Source of the DNA: Bacteroidota bacterium
GTDB taxonomy: Bacteria; Bacteroidota; Ignavibacteria; SZUA-365
NCBI GenBank assembly: GCA_049663345.1
Contig: JBATDG010000087.1
Coordinates: 33,695-97,694 of the forward strand
Direction of reading: 5' to 3'
Length of the DNA: 64,000 nucleotides
The translations under genes and the position numbers were made by a program. The notes beneath the pieces were generated by a model. That model was not told the DNA's origin and searched no databases. It saw nothing but the letters and a program-made list of their open reading frames with translations. Each line of letters begins with the position of its first letter. Position 1 is the first letter of the stretch. Below are positions 901-32,475 of the stretch, in pieces.

Positions 901-2754
901 ATGAAGCGGCAGCCTGCGCATTCGAAAGCGCCTGGCGGTAAGCAGTTGTTCGGCACAGCCAAAATGGATGTGCTTATCCCTGCTGTAATCGCGTTGGCGG
1001 CTATCAGTCTTCGTCTTGCATTCATTTCCTCACTTCGCGAAACACCCTTTTTTCTGCAGCATTTTTCAGACACAAAGCTCTACATGCAGCTTGCGTCGCA
1101 GATTCTGGGCGATGGAATTCCGCAGGCATACTTCATGTCTCCGCTGTATCCATACATGATCGCGCTCATCTGGAAAGCTACCGGGAATCCGGAGTTGTGG
1201 GTCCGAATACTTCAGGCCCTGTTCGGGGGAGGTACAGCGTTGTTGACGTATTTTATTGGGAAAATGTACTTCAGCCGAAGCACCGGGATAGTCGCCGGGG
1301 CGATCGTGGCGTTGTACGCTCCGCTGATTTATTATGACGGCCTCCTTCTGACTGAATCGCTTCAGACATTGCTGTTCACCGGACATCTTCTCATACTTCT
1401 GGCTGCATTGGAGAAAAGGGAGATCAAATACTGGATCGGCGCTGGTGTCTTGCTTGGTCTGTCCGTTATCACTCGCGCGAACATCATTGTATTCCTCCCG
1501 GCCTTTCTGGTTATCTGGATGTTCTTGAAGAAGGAATCGAAACCGTCTCCTCGAAGCCTTCTCGCCTATGCGTTCGCAACGATCATGGTTATTGTGCCAA
1601 TTACTCTGCACAACGCGGCAGCGGAGGGAGTGCTCATCCCGACAACGTCTTCGCTTGGGTACAACCTCTACGCAGGAAACAATTCGGAAGCGACGGGACT
1701 GTACACCATGCCTGACGGAGTAGATCTCTCAGAGGATCTCAACGGCACACATTGGGTAGAAAAACAGACCGGTCGTAACATGAATTCGGCACAGGTTTCC
1801 GACTTCTGGCGCGATCGGGCACTCGGTTGGATGGGAACGCATCCCGGTGACGCGGCAATTCTCTTCGCCCGAAAAATTCTGCTGTTCTTTCATCCCGGCG
1901 AAATTGATCAGCTGGGACTCAGCATGCGGTTTTACACAAACGAATACGGTTGGGTGATCGGCCTTCCTCCCGGTGCCTTCCCGGTGCTGCTGATTCTCTC
2001 CGCAATCGGGCTTCTGCTGGCATTCAGAGATGGAACGGCGACCTGGGTACCGCCGCTCTTCCTTCTCGTTTACGTGCTCTCCACGGCTGTATTCTTTATC
2101 AGTGGTCGCCTGCGTTTGCCTGTTCTGCCTATTCTTATTCTCTACGCGGCGAGCGCATTGGTTGTGCTGGTGCAGCGCAGTAAGGAAGGCCGCTTTGCTT
2201 CTCTGCGCATCCCGGTTGCAGCAGGGGCAGTCGCGGCTCTCGCGTTAATATTTCTGCAGCCGGAAGTGCGCCAGGGTTTTGAACAGGAGTATCTGAAGAT
2301 CGGGCAGGCGTCCTTCAACACAGGCGCGTATCCTGAAGCAGAGCGCCGATTCAGAGCTTCGCTGAATGAGCAGGTTACTGTCGATGCGCTGGTAAATTTG
2401 GGGAATGCGCTTGCGGCGCAGAAACGTGTGGAGGAGGCGGCGGAACAGTATAGGGAAGCACTCAATATGGATTCAACCGCAGCGCTCGCCTGGTTCAACT
2501 ATGGCAATTTGCGCATGCAGACCGGGTCTCCTCAATATGCCTACGGGTACTGGAAGAAGGCCATCGAATGCGATCCTTTTCTTGGGGATGCGAGAAGGAA
2601 TCTAGGCTTACTGCTGATGCAGGCCGGGCGTCTGCCTGAAGCGAGAGAACAGCTGACGAAATATCTTGAACTTGAGCCCGATCCTAAGCGGCGCTCCGAG
2701 ATCAACCGTGATTTGGAGCGCATTCGTCAGATCCTGGAAAAGGATGGACGCTGA
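901..2754 (+). CDS. Polytopic membrane glycosyltransferase-like protein (GT39/ArnT/PMT-like) with C-terminal TPR repeats. The true start may be M22, at about 964
   Basis: The N-terminal half has multiple hydrophobic helices. The C-terminal part shows TPR-like repeats (ALVNLGNALAAQKRVEEAAEQYREAL..., AWFNYGNLRMQTG...). Confidence 0.55.
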   Translation: MKRQPAHSKAPGGKQLFGTAKMDVLIPAVIALAAISLRLAFISSLRETPFFLQHFSDTKLYMQLASQILGDGIPQAYFMSPLYPYMIALIWKATGNPELWVRILQALFGGGTALLTYFIGKMYFSRSTGIVAGAIVALYAPLIYYDGLLLTESLQTLLFTGHLLILLAALEKREIKYWIGAGVLLGLSVITRANIIVFLPAFLVIWMFLKKESKPSPRSLLAYAFATIMVIVPITLHNAAAEGVLIPTTSSLGYNLYAGNNSEATGLYTMPDGVDLSEDLNGTHWVEKQTGRNMNSAQVSDFWRDRALGWMGTHPGDAAILFARKILLFFHPGEIDQLGLSMRFYTNEYGWVIGLPPGAFPVLLILSAIGLLLAFRDGTATWVPPLFLLVYVLSTAVFFISGRLRLPVLPILILYAASALVVLVQRSKEGRFASLRIPVAAGAVAALALIFLQPEVRQGFEQEYLKIGQASFNTGAYPEAERRFRASLNEQVTVDALVNLGNALAAQKRVEEAAEQYREALNMDSTAALAWFNYGNLRMQTGSPQYAYGYWKKAIECDPFLGDARRNLGLLLMQAGRLPEAREQLTKYLELEPDPKRRSEINRDLERIRQILEKDGR

Positions 2755-2761
2755 AAACAAA

Positions 2762-2786
2762 AACGCCCCCTGATTGAGGGGGCGTT
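2762..2786. terminator. Bidirectional rho-independent terminator between the convergent genes
   Basis: The sequence AACGCCCCC-TGATTGA-GGGGGCGTT forms a perfect 9-bp stem. Confidence 0.7.
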
Positions 2787-2789
2787 GAG

Positions 2790-3362
2790 TTATTGTTCGT
2801 CATCTGCAAGAAGATCAGGCTCATCGGAAAGCGGAAATTCTTCCTCCTCCGCCTTGGAAAGCGGGTGTGGAGGCAGATTAAGCACCTCATCGGCGAAATG
2901 CTGCACCAGGTAGGCAATGATATCTTTGACGGAAACAAGTCCCAGAGGCTCGAACGCATCGTTCACGATGGGAATGTGGCGATAGCCGCCGAGATCCATG
3001 AAATTGAGCGCATAGGCGATCGTATCGTCATCGTTAAGCGCCTGGGGATGAATGGTCATCACCTCAGTTATCGGCGACGAACGGAGGTCGAACGATGATC
3101 CGACAATTTTTTTCAGCACATCGCGTTCAGTGAATATGCCGAGCAGTTTCTGATGGCTTGTGACCAGTACGCATCCGATGCGTTTGGTCTGCATCAGGTG
3201 AATCGCGTCACGTATCGGTGTGTCGATGTCAACCGTGATCGCAGGCTTCATGAGACTGCGCAGTGATCGGCGCAAATCTTCCACTTCCAGTGCAGGAATA
3301 TAGGGGTCGGCATCCTGACTGAGGTCTAACTCCGGATCGTCCTTCCTGTTCATCACTACCAC
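2790..3362 (-). CDS. CBS-domain pair protein
   Basis: Two CBS-like motifs are present (ITVDIDTPIRDAIHLMQTKRIGCVLVT..., VMTIHPQALNDDDTIAYALNFMDLGGYRHIPIV). Confidence 0.7.
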   Translation of the reverse strand: MVVMNRKDDPELDLSQDADPYIPALEVEDLRRSLRSLMKPAITVDIDTPIRDAIHLMQTKRIGCVLVTSHQKLLGIFTERDVLKKIVGSSFDLRSSPITEVMTIHPQALNDDDTIAYALNFMDLGGYRHIPIVNDAFEPLGLVSVKDIIAYLVQHFADEVLNLPPHPLSKAEEEEFPLSDEPDLLADDEQ

Positions 3363-3379: not shown

Positions 3380-4915
3380 CTATTCAAGATTTCCGATGGT
3401 ACTTTCTACGTTTTCCAAGATAGTATTTTTTTGCACTAGTTCAGCGGTGCGGCGAAGATCTTCAAACATCAAACGGTCTGCATCGAGGTGAGGTACAGAC
3501 TGTCGGATAATGTTATGCGCGACGCGCGTGCCGCGGCCGAGTCCCATTGGCAAATGGAAATCAAGAGCCTGAGCCGCGGTCATAAATTCCACCGCCAGCA
3601 CGTTCTCTACATTGCGCATGATCTGCCAGGCCTTTCGTGCGCCAATGGATCCCATGCTGTTGTGATCCTCCTGATTCGCAGAAGTAGGAATTGAATCCAC
3701 GCTCGCCGGATGCGAGAGAACCTTGTTTTCCGAAACCAGAGAGGCCGCAGTATACTGCGCGATCATAAGGCCGCTGTTGAGTCCTCCCTTTGCGGTGAGA
3801 AAGCGGGGGAGTCCGCTCAGTTTTCCATTCACCATCCGTTCAGTGCGGCGCTCGGAAATACTGGCGAACTCTGACAAGGCTATGCCGAGGAAATCCGCTG
3901 CAAGGGCCACCGGCTGTCCGTGAAAATTCCCACCTTCGACGAGAGATCGGGTCTCCGCGAATATGAGGGGATTATCCGTTGCCGAGTTGATTTCACAGAG
4001 CAATACATTTTCAACGTAACCGATCGCATCGCGCGAGGCCCCGTGAACCTGCGGCATGCAGCGCAAAGAGTACGCATCTTGCACCGCGTCATGTCCGTCC
4101 CGATGCGACTCGCGAATTTCACTCTCATCCAAAAGACGCAGGATATTGCGCGCGACCGCCTGCTGTCCGGGATGCGGCCGCACCGCATGCAGGATCGGGT
4201 TGCAGGCATTTGTGGTGCCGAGCAATCCTTCGAGCGTCATGGATCCCGCGATATCGAACTGCCGCGCAAGCGCTTTTGCCCTTGCGGTCGTCCAGCTCAA
4301 ATATGCCGTCATCATCTGCGTACCGTTGATCAAGGCCAGACCTTCCTTCGCAGCAAGCACCACGGGTTGTAGTCCATGTGCCTGCAGTGCCTCGGCTGCG
4401 GGACGCGGAGTCCCGGTCGCACTCCACACTGTTTCGAGTCCCATCATCCCGCAAACCAGGTGCGCGAGCTGCACCAGATCGCCGCTTGAGCCGACGGATC
4501 CTTGAGAAGGAATCACCGGAATGATATCGGCATTGAGCATCGCAAGCAGCAACTCGACGGTACTCACCCGTATCCCGGAATATCCTTTCGCAAGCGCGTT
4601 GGCGCGCAGCAGCATGAGGATGCGGGTGATATGTTTCGGCATGGGATCGCCGCAGCCGACTGCGTGGCTGATGATAAGGTTGCGCTGCAGCTGCTCGAGC
4701 TGATCGCTTCCGATATGCACATTGCTGAATTCACCAAAGCCCGTAGTGATGCCATACATGACCTTGTTGTCGCGCACCCATTCATCAACCAATGCACGCG
4801 ATGCCTGCATGCGCGGAAGGGCCTCGGCGGATAGCTCCACCGTGCAGTCCCCGGCCGCCGCAATGAGTACATCTTCCAGTGTGAGAGAATTGCCGTCAAT
4901 CGTGAGCGTTTTCAT
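3380..4915 (-). CDS. Aromatic amino-acid ammonia-lyase of the HAL/TAL/PAL family (MIO cofactor type). At 511 aa it is HAL-sized, and its substrate is not resolved
   Basis: Family signature GSVGSSGDLVQLAH (the MIO-forming triad reads Ser-Ser-Gly rather than Ala-Ser-Gly), plus the N-terminal GITTGFGEF motif. Confidence 0.8.
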   Translation of the reverse strand: MKTLTIDGNSLTLEDVLIAAAGDCTVELSAEALPRMQASRALVDEWVRDNKVMYGITTGFGEFSNVHIGSDQLEQLQRNLIISHAVGCGDPMPKHITRILMLLRANALAKGYSGIRVSTVELLLAMLNADIIPVIPSQGSVGSSGDLVQLAHLVCGMMGLETVWSATGTPRPAAEALQAHGLQPVVLAAKEGLALINGTQMMTAYLSWTTARAKALARQFDIAGSMTLEGLLGTTNACNPILHAVRPHPGQQAVARNILRLLDESEIRESHRDGHDAVQDAYSLRCMPQVHGASRDAIGYVENVLLCEINSATDNPLIFAETRSLVEGGNFHGQPVALAADFLGIALSEFASISERRTERMVNGKLSGLPRFLTAKGGLNSGLMIAQYTAASLVSENKVLSHPASVDSIPTSANQEDHNSMGSIGARKAWQIMRNVENVLAVEFMTAAQALDFHLPMGLGRGTRVAHNIIRQSVPHLDADRLMFEDLRRTAELVQKNTILENVESTIGNLE

Positions 4916-5023
4916 AATCCTGTAGTACAGTTGGACTCAAAAAAAGTACATCAACAAAAATACACAGATGGCGCGAGAGGGGAAAGGGCGGAAATCCTCG
5001 GCCCTAACACACAAACTTTGTTT

Positions 5024-5215
5024 CCTGCGTGTGCCTTTTCCTGCGTGTGCCTTTTCCTGCGTGTGCCTTTGCCTCCGTGGGCCGTTGCCTGCGTGTGCCG
5101 TTGCCTGCGTGCGCCGTTACCTGCGTGCGCCGTTACCTGCGTGCGCCGTTACCTGCGTGTGCCGTTGCCTGCGTGCGCCGTTGCCTGCGTGCGCCGTTGC
5201 CTGCGTGCGCCTTTG
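5024..5215. repeat. Tandem direct repeat of 12 x 16 bp (consensus CCTGCGTGYGCCKTTG), located between the divergent lyase gene and the regulator gene
   Basis: The period is read directly from the sequence. The six-frame ORFs 4931..5343 inside it are artefacts of the repeat. Confidence 0.9.
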
Positions 5216-5335
5216 CCGGGCGCGGTGAACGCTCGCCTACGCCGTTTTTCGGCTTTGCCAAGCGCTTGACTTTGAAAGTATTTGCGTTTATGTTGTTCCT
5301 AACGTTTGAAAAATACCAAACATTAAGGCCGCTAC

Positions 5336-5827
5336 ATGGATAGTCGTCCTGCACTGCTCCAGAAGGAATTTGTCGAAGCATTCGGCAATCTGTATGCGGC
5401 CTATGGCTGGAAGCGTCTCGATGGACTGATCATCGGCCTGCTACTCGCGAAGGCCGAGACACTCTCTCTCGATGAAATTTGTACATCGCTTGGCCGGAGC
5501 AAAGGTCCGATCTCCGAAAGCGTTCGTCAGCTCGCTGCACGGGGATTGCTGCGTAAAATGGCGGGCCGTGAGAATCGTCGCGATTACTACGCAATCGAGC
5601 CGGATCTGTTTTTCCACAATCATCAGCTCAACATGCGGGCTGTGCGGAAGAACAGAGCCATTGCGGAGGAGTATCTCGCGCAGGAAGCGGGTTCTGCAGA
5701 ACTCGAAGGCATGCGGAAAAATCTTCGCATCATGCACGCCTTCTATACGTTGATGGAGAGTTTCTATAGTGATTTTTCCATGAGATGGAACGCAGAGAAA
5801 CAGCGGCTCATCGAATTGGAGAAATGA
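5336..5827 (+). CDS. GbsR/MarR-type winged-helix transcriptional regulator
   Basis: N-terminal wHTH region (LSLDEICTSLGRSKGPISESVRQLAARGLLRK) and size typical of the GbsR family. Confidence 0.6.
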   Translation: MDSRPALLQKEFVEAFGNLYAAYGWKRLDGLIIGLLLAKAETLSLDEICTSLGRSKGPISESVRQLAARGLLRKMAGRENRRDYYAIEPDLFFHNHQLNMRAVRKNRAIAEEYLAQEAGSAELEGMRKNLRIMHAFYTLMESFYSDFSMRWNAEKQRLIELEK

Positions 5828-5882
5828 TCGGTCTGCGATGTAGTTTTCTGATCACAGGTACACGCTGCAAAAGGATAGGACT

Positions 5883-6905
5883 ATGAGAACGGCTGTTATC
5901 ACCGGTACCGGACTGTACGCGCCAGGGGAACCGATTCCGAACTCGGTTTTCAACGAGCGGCATCAGCAGGATATCGATAGCTTCCTTCGGGAGAACCGCA
6001 ACATTCTTCAGCGCTATTACATGGCGGAGGACCAGGCTACATCCGATTTGATCGTGCCGGCGGCAAAGGATGCACTCGCTGAGGCGGGAATCACTGCCAA
6101 GGACCTCGATCTGATCATCGTGTCCACAGACACACCAGACTATATTTCTCCCAGCACGGCTGCTGTGGTTCAGTATCGCCTTGGCGCAGGCAACGCGGGG
6201 GTCTTTGATGTGAACACGGCCTGTGCGGGATTCGTGACTGCCCTCGACATTGCCTGGAAGTACATTCGTTCGGATGAACAATACCGGCACATCCTCGTTG
6301 TCGGGGCATACGGGATGAGCAAATATCTGGATCAGGACGATTACAAAATCGCGACGCTTTTCGCGGACGGGGCCGGTGCCGTCGTGCTCTCCGCTGCAGA
6401 CAGCATGCCGGATGCCGCCGGGCGGTCTTCCGTGGGAGTCCTCGCCTCGACGCTGTACGCGGACGGCAGCTTCCATGACTACATGGGAATTTTCAGCGGG
6501 GGGACGCGCATCCCGGCCTCGCACCAGAGTATTGATGCAAAGGATACTTTACTCCGATTTGCGAAGAAAATTCCTCCCGAAACCAATTCGCAGAACTGGC
6601 CGCGGCTGGTACGGACGGTGCTTGACCGCATCGGCAAAACGCCGCAGGATGTGAAGAAGTATTTTTTCACGCAGATCAACATCAACAGCATTCAACAGAC
6701 GCTCGATTTTCTCGATGTGCCGCATGAACGCTCACATAACGTCATGGATAAATTTGCCTATACCGGCAGTGCCTGCATCCCGATGGCCATCGCCGACGCC
6801 GTCGATGCGCATCGGCTGGACAATGGCGACCTGGTCATGCTCGTAGGTTCAGGCGGCGGCATCTCCATGGCGGCCCTCGCGCTCGAATGGTCCTACACCA
6901 CCTGA
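5883..6905 (+). CDS. 3-oxoacyl-ACP synthase III (FabH-like KAS III)
   Basis: Active-site region NTACAGFVTALDIAW with Cys, 340 aa, and a C-terminal GSGGG motif. Confidence 0.8.
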   Translation: MRTAVITGTGLYAPGEPIPNSVFNERHQQDIDSFLRENRNILQRYYMAEDQATSDLIVPAAKDALAEAGITAKDLDLIIVSTDTPDYISPSTAAVVQYRLGAGNAGVFDVNTACAGFVTALDIAWKYIRSDEQYRHILVVGAYGMSKYLDQDDYKIATLFADGAGAVVLSAADSMPDAAGRSSVGVLASTLYADGSFHDYMGIFSGGTRIPASHQSIDAKDTLLRFAKKIPPETNSQNWPRLVRTVLDRIGKTPQDVKKYFFTQININSIQQTLDFLDVPHERSHNVMDKFAYTGSACIPMAIADAVDAHRLDNGDLVMLVGSGGGISMAALALEWSYTT

Positions 6906-6914
6906 GTACTGCAA

Positions 6915-8414
6915 ATGAACAGTGAGACGTATTATTCCTGGATAGCATTTTCGGCCTACGCGATCATCATTGCGGGCATCGCGCTATGGTCGCGAAGCCG
7001 GGCGCGTTCGATGGAATCGTTTTCGGTCGGGACGCGGACCGTCAGTCCGTATTTCGTCGGACTGTCCCTCGCGGCCAACATGGCCAGCGCGGCGACTTTC
7101 GTCATCAATCCCGGTCTGATGTATCTTTACGGCTGGGCGGGAATTCTCGGCTACGCCGTCGCTACGCCGCTTGGGATTTTCCTGGCCCTCATCATCCTCA
7201 GCAAGAAGTTTCGCAGCATCGGAGATCGCACACGTGTGATCACAGTGCCGCAGTGGATTGGCGACCGCTTCGGCGCACGCTTTCTTACAGTGTATTTCTC
7301 GGTTCTCTCGCTTCTGCAGATCACCTTTCTCGTGCTGATCGTTGTGGGGCTCTCGGTCGTTTTGCGCAGTACTCTTGGCATCTCCATCGAGACGGCGCTG
7401 CTCGTGGTCGTGGGCTTCACCTTCGGCTACATCCTGCTTGGCGGAGCGAGCGCGCATATTCTCACGAATACAATTCAGGCGACGATAATGATCGTCGTGG
7501 CTCTGCTCCTTATCACATCGGGATTTGAATATTTCAGCGACGGCATTGGAGGGTTCTTTACCCGCCTCAGCGAAGTGTCGCCAAATTTTGCTTCGGCAAC
7601 GAATCCCGATAGCCAGCTGTTCCGTGACTGGTTTGAAGTGTTCGCCGCGAATTTTATCATCGGCATTGCCATTATTCTCCAGCCGCATATTATTTCGAAG
7701 TCGCTTTATCTGCGCACAGAAGCCGATGTCAACCGATATCTCGCAACGGCCATGATAGTCGCGACGCTGTTCTTTGCCGTACTTCTGACCGGTCTGTTCG
7801 CCAGACTTACCCTCGGCGGCGAATTGCTGAAACCCGACACAGTGATCGCGACCTATATCGTACAGGAGTTCTCTCCGCCCATCCGTGCCATTATCGGACT
7901 CGGTATACTCTCCGCTGGATTCTCCACGCTCGAAGGAATTCTCCTCGCGCTCTCATCGATATTCGCCAACGATTTTCTCAAGGGCGTGCTGCCCCGCCGC
8001 ATGACGGATGGGGATGCATGGAAAAAGCGTTCGCTGCGCTACGCGAAAATATTCCTTATTGCCCTCGCGCCTGTGACGCTTCTGCTCTCGCGGGATCAGC
8101 TTCTCCATCCCTCGCTGTCCGTCGCGCTCTTCGCGCAGAACGGCGTGTATGGACTGTTCGCCGCGACATTTGTCCCTGTGCTCTTCGGCGTGTTCACCCA
8201 GCGGGCGACAAAGGGGATGGTGTTCACTGCCTCGCTCGTCGCACTGGCCGTGCACTTCGGCATGTATTATGGGAAATTGACCGTCTACCACAATAATCCC
8301 GCCGTGACCGCAGCTATTGCGCTTATTGCAAGCGTCGCCATCATGCTTGCAATGATGGCAGTTTCACGCTCCACAGAGACTGCACGCTCGGTAGAAAAGG
8401 AGGCGGTCCGATGA
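6915..8414 (+). CDS. Sodium:solute symporter family (SSF) transporter
   Basis: About 13 TM helices with an SSF-like N-terminal pattern. The start overlaps the previous gene's stop region. Confidence 0.6.
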   Translation: MNSETYYSWIAFSAYAIIIAGIALWSRSRARSMESFSVGTRTVSPYFVGLSLAANMASAATFVINPGLMYLYGWAGILGYAVATPLGIFLALIILSKKFRSIGDRTRVITVPQWIGDRFGARFLTVYFSVLSLLQITFLVLIVVGLSVVLRSTLGISIETALLVVVGFTFGYILLGGASAHILTNTIQATIMIVVALLLITSGFEYFSDGIGGFFTRLSEVSPNFASATNPDSQLFRDWFEVFAANFIIGIAIILQPHIISKSLYLRTEADVNRYLATAMIVATLFFAVLLTGLFARLTLGGELLKPDTVIATYIVQEFSPPIRAIIGLGILSAGFSTLEGILLALSSIFANDFLKGVLPRRMTDGDAWKKRSLRYAKIFLIALAPVTLLLSRDQLLHPSLSVALFAQNGVYGLFAATFVPVLFGVFTQRATKGMVFTASLVALAVHFGMYYGKLTVYHNNPAVTAAIALIASVAIMLAMMAVSRSTETARSVEKEAVR

Positions 8415-9943
8415 ATGGCTCCGAAAGCATCCGCACGGACTGGTTCGATCGATGGGCGCTCTATTCCCCGGATCGACTCGCCCTGACGGACGAAGAATCG
8501 GGACGAACCTTCACCTACGCGCAATGCAGCCGCATCATCAACCGGCTCGCGCTTGTACTTCGCGATGAATATAAGGTGACGCACGGTGATCGGATTGCCG
8601 TCCTGGCCACGAATGAAATCGAGTACGTATTCCTTTTCTTCGCAGCTCAGAAAATCAGCGCGATTCTCGTCCCGATCAACTATCGGCTGGCGCCTCGTGA
8701 AATCGGACATATTCTTTCTGATTGCACGCCGGTGCTCTTTTCCTACCAGCGGCAGTTCACGGCAGAAATTGAAGCGCTGCCGAATGGAGTGGCGGATGGA
8801 ATACAGACAACTTCGTTCGATGGTCCCGACAGTCTGACCGCGCGCATGTTCAATGAAGAGCTGCCAGCGAATACTGTGCAGCAGCAAGCCGATTTCGAGA
8901 CACCGGTCATGGTGCTGTATACTTCCGGAACGACGGGGACTCCAAAGGGTGCTGTGATTACACACGGCATGCTGTTCTGGAATTCGGTCAACACGAGCAT
9001 GCGGCTCAATCTCGTTCAGCAGGACGTCACGCTGACGTTCGCTCCGTTTTTCCATACCGGTGGATGGAATGTGCTGACCACCCCGTTTCTGCATCGTGGT
9101 GCGCATATCATTCTTCTGAAGAAATTCGATCCCGAACAGGTGCTGCATCTTTGCGACAGCGCCGGCGTGTCGATACTTTTCGGCGTGCCGACCATGATGG
9201 ATATGATGCATCGCTGCAGCGCGTTCTCCACCGTGTCGCTCGCGACGGTGCGCTATGCCATTGTTGGCGGAGAGCCGATGCCCGCCGATTTGATACGCGC
9301 GTGGCAGGCAAAGGGCGTGCCTATAAGGCTTGGCTACGGATTGACTGAGTTTGGTCCCAACGTGTTTTCCCTTAATGAAGAGGATGCGATACGGAAAATC
9401 GGTTCCATCGGCTTTCCAAATTTCTATGTAGACACGCGTGTGGTTGACGACAGCGGCGAGGACGCTGCTGATGGTGCGGTTGGTGAACTACTGCTTCGCG
9501 GACCCGTGTGTACGCCCGGATACTGGAACAATCCCGAGGCAACGGCCGCCGCTATTCAGGATGGCTGGCTTCGGACAGGCGACCTTGTACGGCGGGACGA
9601 AGACGGCTATTTTTATGTAGTTGACCGCAAGAAGGATATGTTTATCAGCGGTGCAGAGAATGTGTATCCCGCGGAAATCGAACACTTTCTCCGCACACAT
9701 CCTGCAGTCGAAGCTGTTGCCGTTGTGGGTGTCCCTGATGAGAGGTGGGGTGAAGCAGGGAAAGCCTTCGTGGTGCTGCGCAAGGACGCCGTGACGACAG
9801 CGGAAGATCTGCTCGATTTCTGCAAAGGAAATCTGGCGAAATACAAAATTCCGAAGTATGTTGTCTTATTAGATGCTCTTCCGCTGAGCGACAGTGGAAA
9901 GATTCTCAAAAAGAAACTCAGGGCAATAGAAAATGGAAGGTAA
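8411..9943 (+). CDS. AMP-dependent synthetase/ligase (acyl- or aryl-CoA ligase)
   Basis: AMP-binding motif YTSGTTGTPKGAVITH, a GYGLTE motif and a C-terminal KYKIPKYV lysine. The start overlaps the upstream stop by 4 nt. Confidence 0.85.
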   Translation: MNGSESIRTDWFDRWALYSPDRLALTDEESGRTFTYAQCSRIINRLALVLRDEYKVTHGDRIAVLATNEIEYVFLFFAAQKISAILVPINYRLAPREIGHILSDCTPVLFSYQRQFTAEIEALPNGVADGIQTTSFDGPDSLTARMFNEELPANTVQQQADFETPVMVLYTSGTTGTPKGAVITHGMLFWNSVNTSMRLNLVQQDVTLTFAPFFHTGGWNVLTTPFLHRGAHIILLKKFDPEQVLHLCDSAGVSILFGVPTMMDMMHRCSAFSTVSLATVRYAIVGGEPMPADLIRAWQAKGVPIRLGYGLTEFGPNVFSLNEEDAIRKIGSIGFPNFYVDTRVVDDSGEDAADGAVGELLLRGPVCTPGYWNNPEATAAAIQDGWLRTGDLVRRDEDGYFYVVDRKKDMFISGAENVYPAEIEHFLRTHPAVEAVAVVGVPDERWGEAGKAFVVLRKDAVTTAEDLLDFCKGNLAKYKIPKYVVLLDALPLSDSGKILKKKLRAIENGR

Positions 9944-10352
9944 GCGAATGCAGGACATGCAGGTGGGCGACCGCGCGTCGTTTGCCAAAACGGTGAGCGA
10001 ATCTGATGTGTACGGATTCGCCGGCATCACCGGTGACTTTAATCCGGTGCATGTCAACGCGGTGTACGCGGCGGAAAGCATGTTCGAACGCCGCATCGCG
10101 CACGGGATGCTTTATGCCAGCTTTATTTCGACCGTGCTCGGGATGCAGCTGCCCGGTCCGGGTGTGATCTATCTCTCGCAGTCGCTGCGCTTTCTCAAGC
10201 CTGTTTTTATAGGCGATACCGTGACCGCAGAAGTTGAGGTCGCCGAAATGTTTGCGGAGAAAAACCGTGTCCGCTTCCTCACTCGCTGCTTCAACCAGGA
10301 TGCACAGCTCGTGGCGGAAGGGGAATCACTGCTCATGCCCCGAAAAGATTGA
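9933..10352 (+). CDS. MaoC-like (R)-specific enoyl-CoA hydratase/dehydratase (hotdog fold)
   Basis: GITGDFNPVHVNAVYA...RIAHGM motif. The gene overlaps the ligase stop. Confidence 0.8.
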   Translation: MEGKRMQDMQVGDRASFAKTVSESDVYGFAGITGDFNPVHVNAVYAAESMFERRIAHGMLYASFISTVLGMQLPGPGVIYLSQSLRFLKPVFIGDTVTAEVEVAEMFAEKNRVRFLTRCFNQDAQLVAEGESLLMPRKD

Positions 10353-10421
10353 GCGGAATGCCGATGAAATTCTGATCTATACACTGTCATTCACACACCA
10401 CACTCACGAAGGAGTACTGTT

Positions 10422-11201
10422 ATGAAGTTCCGCCTTCTTCCGCTTGTTCTGGCAGCTGCCATGTTCGTTTTCGCCGCATGTTCGAGTGACGACGACGGCA
10501 CGCCTGTAACCCCGAGCAACAAGATCGCCGTGACCAACATCTCGCCGATCGCTGGTCCCATCGGCACCACGGTGACGATCACGGGTACCAATTTCGGCAC
10601 CGATGCTGCCGCACTCACAATTACCTTCGGCGGCGTCGCCGTCACACCGGTAACGCTCACCGATACCAAAATCACCATAACGGTTCCAGGCAGTCTTGAT
10701 GTCGGAGCGACCAGCGTCAAACTGAAGCGCGGTACCGGTGCGGAAGTGACCGTGCCCTTCACAGTGCAGGATCCGATTGTCGGTACCTGGACCTCAGAAG
10801 GCTCCAACGTTGCATTGCTGCTCTACGGAGCTCCCTTCAACGTCCGCAAGATCGTCGCGACGTTCAAGGCCGATGGCTCCTATATCGTCGTGCAGACTGA
10901 TTCGTCCCAGACCAACCTGACACTAACCGGCGTCTATGTCGTAGCTCCGGGCAACGCCGCAGCGCCTAACGACAAGATTCGCACCGTCACCGTGAATCAG
11001 GGACAGCCGACTTCGGTCACAGCCGAGGGCATTTACGAAGTCACCGTCGCCCCGGCCGGAATCACGATGAAGTATGAAATCGCACAGACAGAGCCGCCCC
11101 TCGCAGGCGTGACCAAACCGACTCCCGCACTCGGGTTCGGCAGCACGGCCGGTGGGCTTTTCGGCACGATCAACATCCAGACATACGTCAAGAACAACTA
11201 A
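10422..11201 (+). CDS. Lipoprotein with an IPT/TIG domain
   Basis: Signal peptide plus lipobox (MKFRLLPLVLAAAMFVFAAC). TIG-like segment ITPIAGPIGTTVTITGTNFG...VTPVTLTDTKITITVP. Confidence 0.65.
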   Translation: MKFRLLPLVLAAAMFVFAACSSDDDGTPVTPSNKIAVTNISPIAGPIGTTVTITGTNFGTDAAALTITFGGVAVTPVTLTDTKITITVPGSLDVGATSVKLKRGTGAEVTVPFTVQDPIVGTWTSEGSNVALLLYGAPFNVRKIVATFKADGSYIVVQTDSSQTNLTLTGVYVVAPGNAAAPNDKIRTVTVNQGQPTSVTAEGIYEVTVAPAGITMKYEIAQTEPPLAGVTKPTPALGFGSTAGGLFGTINIQTYVKNN

Positions 11202-11208
11202 TCCCTGC

Positions 11209-11240
11209 GGGGAGGGGCTTCGGCCCCTCCCATCTGTTTT
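11209..11240 (+). terminator. Rho-independent terminator
   Basis: GGGAGGGGC-TTCG-GCCCCTCCC stem followed by a T-rich run. Confidence 0.7.
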
Positions 11241-11262
11241 GTTTATGTACCGAGGTGGAACG

Positions 11263-12822
11263 ATGCTTCGCATTCTCCTGCTCCTGCTGATCGCCGCTCC
11301 CTTATATGCTCAGATGCCGGATTATCCGGTAGAGGATGACCGCGGCCGCGGCGTGCCCGACAAACCTGCACCCGAGCTGCAGTTTATCGGCTACATGTTT
11401 AACCGCTTCACAACAACCAACATTGCACCGACGAACGAACTGCTCCGCGGACAGATCATAGGCCGCCTTTTCGGCGCCAATACGACGACGACCCTGCCGC
11501 AGACTTCGGTGTACGGCGAGACGCGATTCGTGCCGCTGTTCGTTTATCGTCCCTCCATCCTTGACGGTTCCGCTGTATTCCGCGGATTGTTCAAAGTGGA
11601 TATGACTTGGGGCGATGCCAGCTATGGTGTTGGAAACAATACAGGCGGCGCGATCAGCGGCGGAACGGTGAATATTCAAACGCTCATGGCAAACATCGAA
11701 CTGCGGCCCGCAAAGGAATGGAACGTGATAGTCGGCTTGCAGCGCATTTTTGACAACGTGCGCGATCCGAATATCAATACGCTGTGGACGAATCAGACCA
11801 GCGGAAACCGCCTGATGTACTGGGGGACCCAAGGCGTCGGTGTGAGCAGTTATTCACAGCTTTCTCCTGTGACCGATCTCCGACTGGCCTATTATCAGCT
11901 CTACGAAAATCAGATTCAGTACGACGATGACGTTGTGCTCTGGATGGCGGATGCTGAAACGCAGGTTGATCCTCTTCTGGAAGTCGGTGCGAGCGCATGG
12001 TACGTCCGTGATCGCGGCGCCGGCAACGGCGGCGTCTCGGTATTGGGACAGGGTTTTAATTCATCGCTGGTTAATTACAATGGCGGAGCAAGGCTTCAGC
12101 TCGACAATCCCAGGTACACTGCCGATGTGTTCTGGCTGGGCACAAATACTTCGTGGAACCGGGAGTTCATCAACGGACGCTGGTGGGCGAGCGCCATGGC
12201 GATGGCGAATCTGGGCAGCATCGACACCGTCGCCCTCAATGGCAGTACTGGACACCGTGCGGATATTTTCGGTGTCACCGGCCACGGCTCGCTCTACTAC
12301 AAATTCGGCCAGACCCTGAATGATCGCGTCGGCGTGGAAGGACTCTACACGACAGGCGACAAGGATGGAGCTGCTGACGGAACATATTCCGGCGTCGTTA
12401 CGGGTAATACCTGGGGTTCACCGGTAGGCATCTACAGTTCACATCGCGCCTTTCTGCTTTTCCCGGATGCGCAGGTCATCAATCGCTATTACTCTGCTGT
12501 TCACGATATTTCGAACCTCGGCTACGGCACGAGCGCGCTGTTCTTCAACTATTTCAACGACCTGATTCCCAACAAACTGGGCATGAAACTCGGAGCAGCG
12601 GCTGCGCTGGCCAACGAAAAACCCGATCTCGGCGGTAATTTCATGGGCTACGAAGTGAACGCCGAATTCAAGTACAACTACGGGGTCTTCCTGAACTTCG
12701 GGCTGCACATGGCATACATGGTACCCGGCGATTTCTACGATAGTCCGTTTGTTCGCAACACCGAGCAAAAACCCGCCGATCCATGGGTGCTTTTCCTAAG
12801 CATCGCCTGGCTGATGTTCTGA
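11263..12822 (+). CDS. Putative outer-membrane beta-barrel protein (porin-like)
   Basis: Signal peptide MLRILLLLLIAAPLYAQ after a GAGGTGG ribosome-binding site. The sequence has an alternating amphipathic pattern and a C-terminal aromatic ...WLMF. The ORF start was trimmed from 11152. Confidence 0.5.
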   Translation: MLRILLLLLIAAPLYAQMPDYPVEDDRGRGVPDKPAPELQFIGYMFNRFTTTNIAPTNELLRGQIIGRLFGANTTTTLPQTSVYGETRFVPLFVYRPSILDGSAVFRGLFKVDMTWGDASYGVGNNTGGAISGGTVNIQTLMANIELRPAKEWNVIVGLQRIFDNVRDPNINTLWTNQTSGNRLMYWGTQGVGVSSYSQLSPVTDLRLAYYQLYENQIQYDDDVVLWMADAETQVDPLLEVGASAWYVRDRGAGNGGVSVLGQGFNSSLVNYNGGARLQLDNPRYTADVFWLGTNTSWNREFINGRWWASAMAMANLGSIDTVALNGSTGHRADIFGVTGHGSLYYKFGQTLNDRVGVEGLYTTGDKDGAADGTYSGVVTGNTWGSPVGIYSSHRAFLLFPDAQVINRYYSAVHDISNLGYGTSALFFNYFNDLIPNKLGMKLGAAAALANEKPDLGGNFMGYEVNAEFKYNYGVFLNFGLHMAYMVPGDFYDSPFVRNTEQKPADPWVLFLSIAWLMF

Positions 12823-12860
12823 TAATCGCCTTTGGAACTCCATCATCAATGGCACGCGCT

Positions 12861-13820
12861 ATGAAAATTTCCCTGTTCCCCATATTTCTCATCATCCTCA
12901 TGATTACTGGCTGCAGTTCCGCAAAATTCTATTACGATGCACCGCCTCTTGCCTTCGAGGACATCGACTATGGATTCCCCATGACGACGGGAACCATCAA
13001 TGGTGTGCAGATGGCCTGGTATGACAGCGGCGGCAGCGGCGCCGTCGTTGTGCTTGTGCACGGACTCGCGAGCAATGCCGGCTTCTGGCGCTACAATGTT
13101 TCCGCCTTGGTTTCCGCCGGTTTCCGTGTGATCGCCGTCGACCTTCCCGGTTACGGGAAGTCTGCAAAAGCTTACGCTACGCCCTATGGAATGGCCTTCT
13201 ACGCAAAAACGCTCGATGCCCTGCTGCAAAAGCTCTCGATTGAAAAGGCCACAATTGCCGGACATTCGATGGGCGGACAGATCGCCATGACCATGGTCCT
13301 GCAGGGGAGTGCGCGCGCAGAGCGGCTGTTACTGCTGTCGCCAGCGGGGATCGAGCGCTTCAAGGACGGCGAAGGCCGCTGGCTGAAGGACGCCGTGTCT
13401 CCCGCTTTCGTCATCAATACTCCCGAAGACCGCATACGCGCGAATCTCGCATCGAATTTCTATTGCTGGCGCGATGACCTGGAATGGATGGTGGAGGAAC
13501 GCGTGCGAATGGCGAAGGACCCCGCGTTCGAGCGGTTCGCCTACGTCGTCTCGCGCTGCGTCGCCGCTATGGTCGAGGAACCGGTTTGGCAAAGTCTGGA
13601 CAAGCTCAACGTGCCTATTCTCGTGCTCGCCGGTGAAAAGGATAATCTGATCCCTAATCCATATCTGCATGGAGGGACTACGCAGGGAGTGATGGAGAAT
13701 GGCGTCGCGCAGCTGCCTTCGGCACGGCTGCAGATGATTCCCAGTGCAGGACACATGATTCAGATCGAGAAACCCGAGCTGATCAACGAGGCTATGATTG
13801 CTTTTCTCAAGGGATCGTAA
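12861..13820 (+). CDS. Alpha/beta-hydrolase fold lipoprotein
   Basis: Lipoprotein signal MKISLFPIFLIILMITGCSS. Motifs VLVHGLASNAGFW and GHSMGG (nucleophile elbow). Confidence 0.75.
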   Translation: MKISLFPIFLIILMITGCSSAKFYYDAPPLAFEDIDYGFPMTTGTINGVQMAWYDSGGSGAVVVLVHGLASNAGFWRYNVSALVSAGFRVIAVDLPGYGKSAKAYATPYGMAFYAKTLDALLQKLSIEKATIAGHSMGGQIAMTMVLQGSARAERLLLLSPAGIERFKDGEGRWLKDAVSPAFVINTPEDRIRANLASNFYCWRDDLEWMVEERVRMAKDPAFERFAYVVSRCVAAMVEEPVWQSLDKLNVPILVLAGEKDNLIPNPYLHGGTTQGVMENGVAQLPSARLQMIPSAGHMIQIEKPELINEAMIAFLKGS

Positions 13821-14520: not shown

Positions 14521-14523
14521 CTT

Positions 14524-15114: not shown

Positions 15115-15273
15115 TCTTCTTCGTCATTTAATGGAGGGCTCATTCTTGAATAACATCGTTCGGGTACGGAACAATTCCAAAACCGGGAGTGAACATCCAT
15201 TCAGCCGGTCGTGGGATAGCTCACCTGTTCCATACCAGAGGGAGAACGTCTATTCAGCCCGCGGCAGGAACGC

Positions 15274-32419: not shown

Positions 32420-32475
32420 CAAATAAGGGAGAATCGAAGACTAAGCTCATGATGTTTTATGAGGAAAGTGCTGTG

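Follow-up and report, generated by a model that had tools for sequence, protein, structure and literature searches.

We propose that the locus studied here, found in a 64-kb stretch of DNA (the window), probably combines two unrelated units lying back to back: a lyase-CBS gene pair on the minus strand and a repressor-controlled operon on the plus strand. Judged from its sequence, the lyase is a genuine histidine ammonia-lyase (HAL) of the HutH type, turning histidine into urocanate. The operon, in the reading that we favour with reasonable though not strong confidence, would serve uptake and catabolism (or salvage) of a small carboxylic acid derived from an ester. No member of this module has been characterised before, and operons of this type span several bacterial phyla.

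Results

Organization of the locus

Open reading frames and Pfam domains confirmed all seven genes of the first-pass annotation, with the families assigned to them. The overlaps reported among the last three were also found: 4 nt between the symporter (SSS) and ligase genes (ATGA, the ligase start lying over the SSS stop codon), and 11 nt between the ligase and MaoC genes. The region delimited at that time, 3380-10352, ends just short of the CBS gene and, since three further co-conserved genes (for a lipoprotein, a barrel and a hydrolase) follow MaoC, cuts the operon on the other side. The plus-strand unit extends over about 5304-13820, from the putative operator through the regulator, KAS-like, SSS, ligase, MaoC, lipoprotein, channel and esterase genes (Table 1). 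Tight spacing (9 nt between the KAS-like and SSS genes), the overlaps, a conserved operator-like palindrome and co-linear conservation across phyla all argue for one unit; the order is not random, as it is the same in Bacteroidota, Ignavibacteriota and Gemmatimonadota.

Table 1. Genes and sequence elements of the lyase-CBS pair and of the operon
Feature	Position	Strand	Basis and details
GC-rich hairpin with T-runs on both strands	2762-2786		10-bp stem, 7 GC pairs
CBS-pair protein	2790-3362	-	Pfam CBS, E = 2e-24; 190 aa
Histidine ammonia-lyase, HutH type	3380-4915	-	Pfam Lyase_aromatic, E = 6e-192; 511 aa
Tandem array of 16-bp unit GTTGCCTGCGTGCGCC, 12.4 copies	5020-5217		lyase/regulator spacer
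Imperfect palindrome GTTTGAAAAATACCAAAC	5304-5321		~15 nt upstream of regulator start codon
Winged-helix regulator, MarR/GbsR-like	5336-5827	+	Pfam HTH_27, E = 9e-6; 163 aa
KAS III (FabH)-fold protein	5883-6905	+	Pfam ACP_syn_III + ACP_syn_III_C
Sodium:solute symporter (SSS), inner membrane	6915-8414	+	Pfam SSF, E = 1e-41; 499 aa
ANL-family acyl/aryl-CoA ligase	8411-9943	+	Pfam AMP-binding + AMP-binding_C; 510 aa
Single-domain MaoC, PhaJ-type (R)-specific enoyl-CoA hydratase	9933-10352	+	Pfam MaoC_dehydratas; 139 aa
TIG-domain lipoprotein	10422-11201	+	Pfam TIG, E = 9e-13; lipobox FAAC
Strong GC hairpin (9 bp) with T-rich tail	11210-11231	+	between lipoprotein and outer-membrane genes
Predicted outer-membrane 18-strand beta-barrel, AlgE/OprD(Occ)-like channel	about 11263-12822	+	AlphaFold model + Foldseek
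Lipoprotein alpha/beta-hydrolase, carboxylesterase type	about 12861-13820	+	Pfam Abhydrolase_1, E = 4e-30

On the minus strand, the CBS gene starts 17 nt downstream of the lyase gene, and the two are probably co-transcribed as a two-gene transcript, which the hairpin between the CBS gene and a convergent PMT/TPR gene likely closes as a bidirectional terminator. The hairpin within the operon is a possible attenuator or RNA-processing site.

The tandem array in the spacer between the units (9 matches vs 0.1 expected) is strain-specific: the orthologous spacers of L003, L008 and L010-L012 do not contain it. Two Logan contigs stop inside it, 135 nt upstream of the lyase start. Palindromes related to that in front of the regulator gene head the operon in nine other loci (L003, L006, L008, L010, L011, L012, L017, L071 and L088), and this element is a probable operator for the operon's own repressor. 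The regulator, encoded by the first gene, matches the CudC model weakly (39 bits, cut-off 218); in many loci the operon opens with an orthologue of it, while a TetR or MarR regulator takes its place in others.

Identity of the lyase and its relation to the operon

In profile searches the lyase passed the cut-offs of the hutH equivalog TIGR01225 (669.7 bits, cut-off 539) and of PRK09367 (679, cut-off 524), and failed that of the FlxA tyrosine-lyase model (342.7, cut-off 700). Its best solved-structure matches are HALs (full-length E = 2e-119). When aligned with Pseudomonas putida HAL (PpHAL), Y54, S83-H84, N197, Q279, Y282, R285, F331 and E416 correspond to PpHAL Y53, H83, N195, Q277, Y280, R283, F329 and E414; all active-site residues of PpHAL are thus present, including the Ser-His selectivity switch and Glu416. 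The MIO triad, Ser143-Ser144-Gly145, is conserved in the clade. On these grounds we assign the lyase to HutH, and the TAL-type activity on which the first-pass annotation built its preferred reading is not supported, nor do the switch residues to which it had pointed as a check speak for it.

That annotation had further presented the region as a compact locus that resembles a pathway, yet the adjacency of lyase and operon, real as it is in the sequence, is conserved in a single clade. The HAL-CBS pair adjoins the operon only in the closely related loci L003 and L008-L012, where the PMT/TPR and T9SS flanks are likewise shared; no such neighbourhood was present in the Gemmatimonadota, other Bacteroidota, Ignavibacteriota and Bdellovibrionota loci examined. 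The pair is also kept in the relative L090, whose flanks match (S15 peptidase, ABM, membrane protein and TIG lipoprotein, then HAL, CBS, PMT/TPR and T9SS), in spite of which the regulator, KAS-like gene, SSS, ligase, MaoC, outer-membrane channel and hydrolase are all missing there. Related genomes therefore differ in having or lacking the operon, the lyase is evolutionarily unlinked to it, and the lyase-CBS pair belongs to the chromosomal backbone of this Bacteroidota/Ignavibacteria-like lineage.

Neither hutU nor hutI was found among the scanned ORFs of the window, and this, together with the divergent orientation of lyase and operon genes and the acrylic-acid nature that urocanate shares with cinnamate, could suggest a non-canonical histidine route in which urocanate from the lyase is converted to urocanoyl-CoA and hydrated by the adjacent operon. 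Such a route is very improbable, as the operon lacks an adjacent lyase in every other lineage, L090 has the lyase without the operon, and a relative's lyase, 60% identical, has a urocanase about 7 kb away.

The KAS III-like enzyme

The KAS-like gene is the most conserved of the module. Its product retains Cys114 and the Gly-rich oxyanion loop, with Thr263 and Tyr293 replacing the catalytic His and Asn. In 77/77 sequences of the family the Cys is kept and the changes H→T, N→Y, F87→S, F304→S and K214→E/D are found; the basic residues by which FabH docks ACP (R249, K214, K256) are neutral or acidic in nearly all of them, Arg at position 249 occurring once. The protein remains below both FabH cut-offs (219.9 vs 249; 187.1 vs 292), although FabH is its structural match (1e-43, OleA matching weakly at about 1e-13). 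It also carries a family-specific insert, HDYMG...KKxPxETN, which is not resolved in the predicted model (pLDDT 71, moderate confidence). Loss of both the His-Asn dyad and the basic docking residues indicates that it is not a condensing FabH; in principle, the Thr and Tyr hydroxyls could stabilise an enolate, so that condensation stays formally conceivable.

The starter role given to this protein in the first-pass annotation, which depends on the dyad for decarboxylative condensation, is accordingly not upheld. The same applies to the wider scheme of aryl polyene, flexirubin or dialkylresorcinol synthesis, in which the lyase would supply an aryl-acrylic acid, the ligase activate it and KAS III prime extension. 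Only the superficial company of three families (aromatic-lyase fold, ANL ligase, KAS III fold) speaks for this scheme, whereas the lyase is a HAL that is not co-inherited with the operon, FlxA, DarB (46, cut-off 550) and StlD/DarB (45, cut-off 450) scores fall far under their cut-offs, the importer, outer-membrane channel and secreted esterases indicate uptake, and a scan of the window ORFs revealed neither an ACP nor an elongating ketosynthase nor any further gene of these pathways. We regard it as highly unlikely.

Equally unlikely is an Ole-like or beta-lactone-like set, with thiolase-fold, AMP-ligase-fold, SDR and alpha/beta-hydrolase proteins as OleA, OleC, OleD and OleB. It would fit the cluster of Bdellovibrionota, which consists of exactly the KAS-like protein, the ligase, an SDR and two alpha/beta-hydrolases, divergent or co-linear. 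In OleA, however, His and Asn are retained along with a catalytic Glu, unlike in this family; OleA structures match far more weakly than FabH, the SDR is of the FabG and not the OleD type, the ligase is FadD13-like, and one of the hydrolases is either a secreted protein or a lipoprotein.

Distribution of the module

Four phyla share the core of KAS-like and ligase genes, namely Bacteroidota, Ignavibacteriota, Gemmatimonadota and Bdellovibrionota, a ligase homologue adjoining or neighbouring the KAS-like gene in 67/78 loci, and one or two alpha/beta-hydrolases accompanying it in 64. No transporter was found within the cluster in Bdellovibrio loci. In other forms of the module MaoC is replaced by a FabG-like SDR that passes the FabG equivalog cut-off (306-311 vs 296), and the two never occur together in one locus among those examined. 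Since one form lacks a dehydrogenase gene and the other a hydratase gene, the pathway would depend on housekeeping enzymes. A true thiolase adjoins the module in L088, which weakens the case for a thiolase function of the KAS-like enzyme itself.

Symporter, ligase and hydratase

The nearest NCBIfam models of the symporter, PanF and PutP, are both far under cut-off, and an MFS transporter occupies its position in L071 and L088. The ligase has 8wev/8weu (361 bits), FadD13 (316), FadD5 and MenE as best solved structures and reaches no NCBIfam cut-off (nearest PRK06187, 464.7 vs 476); by sequence it appears closest to the FadD13/feruloyl-CoA-synthetase group. Two groupings had been named in the first-pass annotation as telling against its reading: that of the lyase with HutH was found, as was a urocanase gene near a related lyase, whereas the ligase falls into no curated family. 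MaoC best matches PhaJ1 5cpg (E = 5e-36) and PhaJ 1iq6 (E = 5e-33) and contains the catalytic motif D35-FNPV-H40; its pocket residues presumably resemble those of short-chain PhaJ. Clues to chain length conflict, the pocket being short-chain-like and the nearest relatives of the ligase using long-chain or aromatic acids.

Envelope proteins

In the small lipoprotein an N-terminal IPT/TIG domain precedes a C-terminal domain (about 140 aa, no assigned fold) that is conserved in other phyla at 42-48% identity, encoded there between ligase/MaoC and the outer-membrane gene. The barrel protein (520 aa) starts with a signal peptide and ends in Phe; it gave no Pfam or NCBIfam match, and a few homologues carry PF13372 Alginate_exp. 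Its AlphaFold model (pLDDT 72, 18 strands) retrieved AlgE (E = 1e-16), then OccD, OccK, OpdK and BenF-like porins, which suggests an AlgE/Occ-like substrate channel. The hydrolase has the Ser nucleophile motif GHSMGG and the lipobox ITGC, its start codon being ambiguous (12783, 12849 or 12861), and matches generic esterase/meta-cleavage-hydrolase models and, weakly, short-chain PHA depolymerase models.

Discussion

In the mechanism that we propose, the lipoprotein esterase would cleave an ester in the cell envelope, the channel, assisted by the small lipoprotein, would pass the acid or its ester over the outer membrane, and the symporter would bring the acid over the inner one. This route is supported by lipoboxes and signal peptides, by the match of the barrel to AlgE and carboxylate-specific Occ channels, and by the esterase type of the hydrolases. 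The ligase could then convert the acid to a CoA thioester, on which the PhaJ-type hydratase, or elsewhere the FabG-type (R)-specific 3-oxoacyl reductase/dehydrogenase, would act. Such CoA chemistry is supported by the ligase, the PhaJ-type MaoC, the FabG-like alternate and the true thiolase that adjoins the module in L088. The KAS III-derived enzyme might still pass through an acyl-Cys intermediate derived from a CoA thioester and perform a thiolase-like step or acyl transfer on CoA esters, dispensing with malonyl-ACP decarboxylation and ACP docking. What the analysis establishes is the gene content, the identity of the lyase, the active-site substitutions, the synteny, the protein folds and the signal peptides; we infer the catabolic direction, the order of steps and the substrate, as well as this chemistry of the KAS-like enzyme. 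MaoC hydratase 2 and (R)-specific SDRs both make or consume (R)-3-hydroxyacyl-CoA; their alternation, with the (R)-3-hydroxyacyl thioester as common point, may point to (R)-3-hydroxy or 2-enoyl acids of short to medium chain length as the likeliest class of substrate. Polyhydroxyalkanoate oligomers and lipid-derived 3-hydroxy acids may be proposed as examples.

The catabolic alternative mentioned in the first-pass annotation (uptake, CoA activation and hydration) thus finds general support in the co-conserved channel, lipoproteins and symporter, though not specifically for an aromatic substrate. Catabolism of hydroxycinnamates or other aromatic acids would require a surface esterase freeing ferulate or coumarate, import by the Occ-like channel and SSS, conversion by the ligase to an aryl-acryloyl-CoA, hydration by MaoC, and thiolytic, beta-oxidative side-chain shortening by the KAS-like enzyme. 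MarR-type regulators are usual in hydroxycinnamate pathways (CouR, HcaR), and the regulator of the operon is MarR-like; F87→S and F304→S would widen the acyl pocket, the barrel fold retrieves OpdK (with vanillate) and a BenF-like porin, and a Bdellovibrio hydrolase weakly matches cinnamoyl and chlorogenate esterases. The best solved relative of the ligase is named feruloyl-CoA synthetase, but this PDB sequence also bears the name fatty-acyl-CoA synthase, and the score of FadD13 is nearly as high. As the MaoC pocket seems short-chain PhaJ-like, no ring-processing genes occur among nearby window ORFs, and predatory Bdellovibrio, for which no use of plant phenolics is known, commonly carry the module, we consider this explanation rather unlikely.

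A similarly low probability is assigned to a salvage route that would feed fatty or branched short-chain acids from outside into lipid synthesis, the ligase supplying an acyl-CoA and the KAS-like enzyme transferring its acyl moiety, or an (R)-3-hydroxyacyl group from MaoC or FabG, to ACP or a lipid acceptor. The Cys and oxyanion loop retained from the acyl-loading half-reaction of FabH and the FabG-like partner SDR would suit it; besides, iso-branched and 3-hydroxy fatty acids are generally abundant in all carrier lineages, and Bdellovibrio is known to reuse prey fatty acids. On the other hand, the basic ACP-docking residues are lost in nearly all sequences, the channel is not FadL-like, and the cluster contains no gene for ACP or a lipid acyltransferase.

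Comparison with known systems

The lyase shares with P. putida HAL (PDB 1B8F / 1GKM) the substrate-binding and catalytic residues and the selectivity pair, and differs from it in the MIO triad, which is Ala-Ser-Gly there, and in being paired with a CBS gene outside any hutHUI operon within the window. The ligase resembles the FadD13/feruloyl-CoA-synthetase ANL group (PDB 3R44, 8WEV) over its full length and in both ANL domains, while remaining under every curated family cut-off. MaoC has in common with PhaJ (Aeromonas caviae 1IQ6; P. aeruginosa PhaJ1 5CPG) the single hot-dog domain, the Asp/His motif and a short-chain-like pocket, but its gene belongs to an uptake operon and does not accompany a PHA synthase. 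The predicted monomeric 18-strand barrel matches AlgE and OprD/Occ channels (Foldseek E = 1e-16 to 1e-10) at 9-13% identity and a TM-score of about 0.5-0.6; it is larger than they are and is encoded with lipoproteins in FCB-group bacteria.

With D-specific (MFE-2 type) beta-oxidation and PHA-monomer supply (PhaJ, FabG) the module shares the MaoC and FabG-like enzyme types, which here take each other's place from locus to locus, and its thiolase-fold partner is a FabH derivative instead of a thiolase. From FabH itself (E. coli FabH; Aquifex 2EBD; Bacillus 8VD9) this partner is set apart by the exchanged dyad and pocket residues, the altered docking surface, the insert and the low family scores. 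The KAS III-like acyltransferases CerJ, ChlB3/ChlB6 and PqsBC, which we take to keep the His together with Asp or another residue, belong to antibiotic or quinolone clusters, whereas the family described here has Thr and Tyr and is encoded in an uptake-type operon.

Gene content and identity of the lyase

The genes named in the first-pass annotation were all found in the ORF list and in the Pfam/NCBIfam scans (see the table), and the translational overlap of its last three genes was borne out: ATGA is common to the symporter stop and the ligase start, and the ligase and MaoC genes overlap by 11 nt. The extent assigned to the locus, 3380-10352, was right as to its genes and too short at its right-hand boundary, as three co-travelling genes lie downstream of MaoC.

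Features of the lyase region, the operon and their surroundings in the window
Feature	Position	Strand	Properties or source
Hairpin	2762-2786		strong, bidirectional
CBS-pair protein	2790-3362	-	ORF list, Pfam/NCBIfam
Aromatic-amino-acid-lyase family protein	3380-4915	-	ORF list, Pfam/NCBIfam
Tandem array	5020-5217		16-bp unit GTTGCCTGCGTGCGCC, 12.4 copies, 92% matches
Palindrome	5304-5321		GTTTGAAAAATACCAAAC, ~15 nt upstream of regulator start
Winged-helix regulator	5336-5827	+	ORF list, Pfam/NCBIfam
KAS III-fold protein	5883-6905	+	ORF list, Pfam/NCBIfam
Sodium:solute symporter	6915-8414	+	ORF list, Pfam/NCBIfam
AMP-binding ligase	8411-9943	+	ORF list, Pfam/NCBIfam
MaoC dehydratase	9933-10352	+	ORF list, Pfam/NCBIfam
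Lipoprotein	10422-11201	+	lipobox FAAC, TIG domain, conserved ~140-aa domain
Hairpin	11210-11231		9-bp, GC, T-rich tail
Outer-membrane protein	~11263-12822	+	signal peptide, C-terminal Phe (...WLMF), no family match
Lipoprotein alpha/beta hydrolase	~12861-13820	+	lipobox ITGC, motif GHSMGG
Backbone block	13924-17214	-	198-aa membrane protein (no family), ABM-domain protein, S15 peptidase
Long ORF	27048-32021		1657 aa
T9SS-sorted proteins near the long ORF	32449-34263, 35524-36891		C-terminal sorting domains

The lyase had been taken for a TAL, and this identification did not survive comparison with characterized families. The protein passes the hutH equivalog model TIGR01225 (669.7 bits, cut-off 539.15) and PRK09367 (679.3, cut-off 524), while it stays below the BagA/FevW cut-off (297 against 1000) and far under the aminomutase and PAL cut-offs of NCBIfam. 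Histidine ammonia-lyases take the first eight places among solved structures, with tyrosine aminomutase, RsTAL and PALs following at much lower scores, and among the 120 closest database relatives every one that bears a name is called histidine ammonia-lyase. In a gap-free alignment with the Pseudomonas putida enzyme (PpHAL), residues Y54, H84, N197, Q279, Y282, R285, F331 and E416 correspond to PpHAL Y53, H83, N195, Q277, Y280, R283, F329 and E414, the active-site residues known from the PpHAL structure papers. The selectivity-switch pair is Ser-His in HAL, His-Leu in TAL and Phe-Leu in PAL; here it is Ser83-His84, the HAL pair, and it is kept together with the imidazole-binding Glu (E416) in five orthologues. 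The MIO-forming X-Ser-Gly triad, S143-S144-G145 within GSVGSSGDL, is Ser-Ser-Gly in this lyase and in 5/5 orthologues checked, in contrast to the usual Ala-Ser-Gly of HAL. Neither urocanase (hutU) nor imidazolonepropionase (hutI) was found among the scanned ORFs of the 64-kb window; in a 60%-identical relative, a urocanase lies about 7 kb from the lyase. Judged from its sequence, the protein is a histidine ammonia-lyase (HutH), and as such already known biology.

This assignment also bears on the pigment or resorcinol starter-unit pathway that had been read from the proximity of lyase, ligase and KAS III. With a HutH lyase, DarB/StlD models far below cut-off and no cluster genes near the locus, such a biosynthetic pathway is unlikely. 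Among the window ORFs scanned with Pfam and NCBIfam, no ACP, no elongating ketosynthase, no reductase and dehydratase set and no lipid-anchor or export genes were found near the locus, so it does not have the composition of an aryl-polyene or flexirubin gene cluster. A FlxA-like reading was rejected on the NF053541 score (342.7, cut-off 700) and the Ser-His switch, and a DarB-like one on NF053539 (45.6, cut-off 550) and NF005293 (StlD/DarB; 44.5, cut-off 450). Lyase, ligase and KAS III-fold genes lying close together should not be taken for aryl-polyene logic before the selectivity switch and the catalytic triad have been checked.

Linkage of the lyase to the operon

Comparison of related loci argues that the lyase does not belong to the neighbouring pathway, of which it had been considered a part. 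The alignment of the KAS III-like protein was searched against one genome per species, and the window proteins were mapped onto 87 loci, most of them from that search. The lyase and CBS genes adjoin the operon only in a close clade (loci L003 and L008-L012; KAS III-like identity of at least 72%), where the flanking genes for a PMT/TPR protein and a T9SS-sorted protein are also kept, and this adjacency is no more than the usual synteny of a lineage. Different genes adjoin the operon in Gemmatimonadota, other Bacteroidota, Ignavibacteriota and Bdellovibrionota. The decisive case is L090, a locus in which the lyase is 77% identical and the backbone is shared to either side, with S15 peptidase, ABM protein, membrane protein and TIG lipoprotein at one end and lyase, CBS, PMT/TPR and T9SS proteins at the other. 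Because this backbone persists without the regulator, KAS III-like, symporter, ligase, MaoC, outer-membrane protein and hydrolase genes, the lyase is not part of the operon. A urocanoyl-CoA route, in which the lyase would feed the operon, is likewise unlikely.

The TIG-domain lipoprotein gene of L090 (6957-7727; 56% identical to its counterpart in the window) is kept between the lyase and the downstream backbone; therefore, either the absence of the operon is not a clean single excision, or the lipoprotein has a separate role. The lyase and CBS genes are 17 nt apart, and the pair ends at a strong bidirectional hairpin. The backbone block is kept in L008, L012 and L090; its ABM-domain protein has C-terminal membrane helices, and its S15 peptidase is of the CocE/NonD type with a weak T9SS-like tail. 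T9SS C-terminal sorting domains were also found in several proteins near the 1657-aa ORF.

Regulatory region

Variants of the palindrome upstream of the regulator head the operon in at least nine other loci. In several phyla the imperfect pattern GTTTGAAA-N2-TTCCAAAC is conserved and closely precedes the regulator or the operon's first gene (at 7451 in L003, 9387 in L008, 5088 in L011, 9439 in L012, 9442 in L017, 8584 in L071 and 3788 in L088). It is likely to be an operator, and its position is consistent with autoregulation by a MarR-type repressor. The spacer between lyase and regulator is filled by the 16-bp tandem array, which none of five related loci has in the orthologous spacer; two short-read assemblies, independent of each other, stop inside it, 135 nt upstream of the lyase start. 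Rfam, applied to the whole window at gathering thresholds, returned no RNA family, and therefore no riboswitch in this 420-bp spacer. Counts in a sigma-70 promoter and terminator scan were not above those for shuffled sequence, two strong hairpins alone being notable. The hairpin between the lipoprotein and outer-membrane protein genes may act as an attenuator inside the operon, or mark a site of RNA processing.

The KAS III-like enzyme

At the centre of the operon stands a KAS III-fold protein whose active site has been altered throughout its family. Among 77 distinct sequences, the nucleophilic Cys (Cys114) is invariant and the Gly-rich oxyanion loop is retained in all except one (76/77); the catalytic His is replaced by Thr (Thr263) and the Asn by Tyr (Tyr293) in 77/77, and so are F87 and F304 by Ser. 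At the ACP-docking positions, 214 is Glu or Asp in every sequence, 249 is Arg in 1/77 and 256 is mostly Asp. The positions were read against E. coli FabH, with the residue roles of the FabH literature; a tool-made alignment with B. subtilis FabH agrees as to the Thr and Tyr replacements. The protein also scores below the FabH cut-offs (219.9 against 249 for PRK09352, 187.1 against 292.1 for TIGR00747). Triad, family score and basic docking residues all fail to support a condensing KAS III, and the aligned residues indicate that the enzyme cannot act as FabH.

In FabH, His244 and Asn274 are required for malonyl decarboxylation and condensation and are dispensable for acyl loading. We infer from the conserved residues that the KAS III-like enzyme reacts with a CoA thioester to give an acyl-Cys intermediate, and would neither decarboxylate malonyl-ACP nor bind ACP at the usual site. 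Cys298 was rejected as a second catalytic residue, since 41 sequences have Cys there, 17 have Ala and 19 have Ser. No description of a KAS III family whose active site is Cys-Thr-Tyr was found in the curated family libraries (Pfam, NCBIfam). Full-text literature searches likewise yielded none of the family or of the operon; they covered ligase-associated KAS III-like acyltransferases, KAS III in Bdellovibrio, the structures 8WEV/8WEU, uptake of 3-hydroxybutyrate oligomers, and ACP transacylase in relation to exogenous fatty acids.

These features also make unlikely an OleABCD-like system producing olefins or beta-lactones. The structure matches of the enzyme favour FabH (1e-43) over OleA (E ~1e-13), and the His and Asn of the OleA-type Cys-His-Asn plus Glu arrangement are missing. 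In addition, the reductase (SDR) of related loci is FabG-type, not OleD-type, and the hydrolase is a lipoprotein or secreted, whereas OleB is cytoplasmic. The reading, which would also call for an OleC-type lactone synthetase, was rejected.

CoA-processing and envelope proteins

The ligase contains AMP-binding (E = 2.5e-81) and AMP-binding_C (E = 2.4e-21) domains and reaches no NCBIfam cut-off; it is predicted to be an ANL acyl/aryl-CoA ligase. The MaoC protein is a single hot-dog domain (PF01575, E = 1.5e-23) with the catalytic pair D35 and H40 within GDFNPVH. It matches PhaJ structures (E = 5e-36 and 5e-33) and is a predicted PhaJ-type (R)-specific enoyl-CoA hydratase.

The lipoprotein, outer-membrane protein and hydrolase genes 3' of MaoC accompany the operon in other phyla. 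Modelled by AlphaFold from 30 aligned sequences, the outer-membrane protein has 18 strands at pLDDT 72, and Foldseek placed AlgE first, followed by carboxylate-specific OprD/Occ channels; by fold, with no sequence-family match, the protein is a putative AlgE/OprD-like 18-strand channel. Pfam at lenient E-values gave nothing usable for this protein and the small lipoprotein; a lipocalin fold is not claimed (Lipocalin_4, E = 1.5). The hydrolases are generic carboxylesterase types; they match entries for short-chain PHA depolymerases and polyester hydrolases weakly but repeatedly. A PhaC-like role was rejected on their Ser nucleophiles and signal peptides.

Module variants across phyla

A ligase homologue is present in 67 of the 78 loci with a KAS III-like gene, adjoining or close to it wherever gene order is readable; one or two alpha/beta hydrolases occur in 64 and a 250-aa SDR in 59. 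The KAS III-like/ligase pair was found in Bacteroidota, Ignavibacteriota, Gemmatimonadota and Bdellovibrionota. For the symporter and MaoC a tblastn map was used, as greedy ORF clustering under-called both in GC-rich loci, where antisense ORFs won. The window and about 10 other loci have the order regulator, KAS III-like, symporter, ligase, MaoC, lipoprotein, outer-membrane channel and hydrolase (Form A). In Form B (L056, L071, L074 and L088) it is regulator, SDR, KAS III-like, MFS, ligase, lipoprotein, outer-membrane channel and hydrolase(s). From these gene sets, MaoC and the FabG-type enzyme are alternates, as are the symporter and the MFS transporter. The SDR of the FCB forms passes a FabG equivalog cut-off (306-311 against 296). 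In Bdellovibrionota, cytoplasmic hydrolase, secreted hydrolase, SDR, KAS III-like and ligase genes form two groups, divergent or co-linear. Cultured carriers are Bdellovibrio sp. HCB117 and B. bacteriovorus Bd16 with its region 266,895-287,887 of CP168971.

Two neighbouring genes may be recorded here. In L088, an Ignavibacteria-type locus, a canonical acetyl-CoA C-acetyltransferase (2082-3260) lies immediately upstream of the module regulator, and in L075, of Bdellovibrio bacteriovorus, a PLD-family phospholipase gene (14469-16688) lies about 2 kb downstream of the KAS III-like/ligase pair.

Proposed function

The operon joins an envelope set (esterase lipoprotein, small lipoprotein, Occ/AlgE-like channel and symporter) to a ligase, a PhaJ-type hydratase and the KAS III-like enzyme, together with a local repressor. 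We consider it on balance probable that the lyase is unrelated and that the operon is an uptake and CoA-processing unit, which would import a small ester-derived carboxylic acid and process it as the CoA ester. PhaJ-type hydratases, like FabG-type reductases, have (R)-3-hydroxyacyl thioesters as product or substrate, and the alternation of MaoC with a FabG-type enzyme therefore points to an (R)-3-hydroxyacyl-CoA intermediate. In such a scheme, the esterase would free an (R)-3-hydroxy acid or a 2-enoic acid, which the ligase would activate; the SDR would oxidise the product to 3-oxoacyl-CoA, or MaoC would interconvert it with 2-enoyl-CoA, and the KAS III-like enzyme would then carry out thiolase-like cleavage or acyl transfer. 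Polyhydroxyalkanoate oligomers and lipid-derived 3-hydroxy acids are candidate natural substrates. This specific (R)-3-hydroxy-acid version is put forward with considerable doubt.

Catabolism of aromatic acids (hydroxycinnamates) is a possible alternative, as the nearest structural relative of the ligase bears the name feruloyl-CoA synthetase and aromatic acids are carried by Occ channels. Salvage of fatty acids into lipids is weakened by the loss of the ACP-docking patch from the KAS III-like enzyme and by an outer-membrane channel that is not FadL. Returning to the uptake and CoA-processing unit, we suggest, as a tentative extension, that an undescribed CoA-dependent pathway of several phyla may centre on the Cys-Thr-Tyr enzyme and the CoA ligase always adjacent to it. 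The FabH-fold enzyme would here have become a thiolase or acyltransferase that does not decarboxylate and is independent of ACP. Acting alongside secreted esterases and a hydratase or dehydrogenase of (R)-specificity, it might allow growth on esters of (R)-3-hydroxyalkanoates, for example polyhydroxyalkanoate oligomers or lipids of prey.

Thus, the original hypothesis fails, and the locus leads instead to an enzyme family that is widely distributed, misannotated and tractable by experiment. The operon is conserved in at least four phyla, cultured Bdellovibrio included, and its module is currently annotated only as 'ketoacyl-ACP synthase III' and 'long-chain fatty-acid-CoA ligase'. Knowing the reaction of the KAS III-like enzyme would put right a misannotation that is widespread and extend the KAS III fold by a new activity; it could also show how many environmental bacteria and bacterial predators import an abundant class of ester-bound acids. 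Compared with FabH, the central enzyme retains the Cys and carries Thr and Tyr for the catalytic His and Asn. The operon as a whole is a new combination of known kinds, namely an ANL ligase, PhaJ, the KAS III fold and Occ-like channels, built around this Cys-Thr-Tyr KAS III family.
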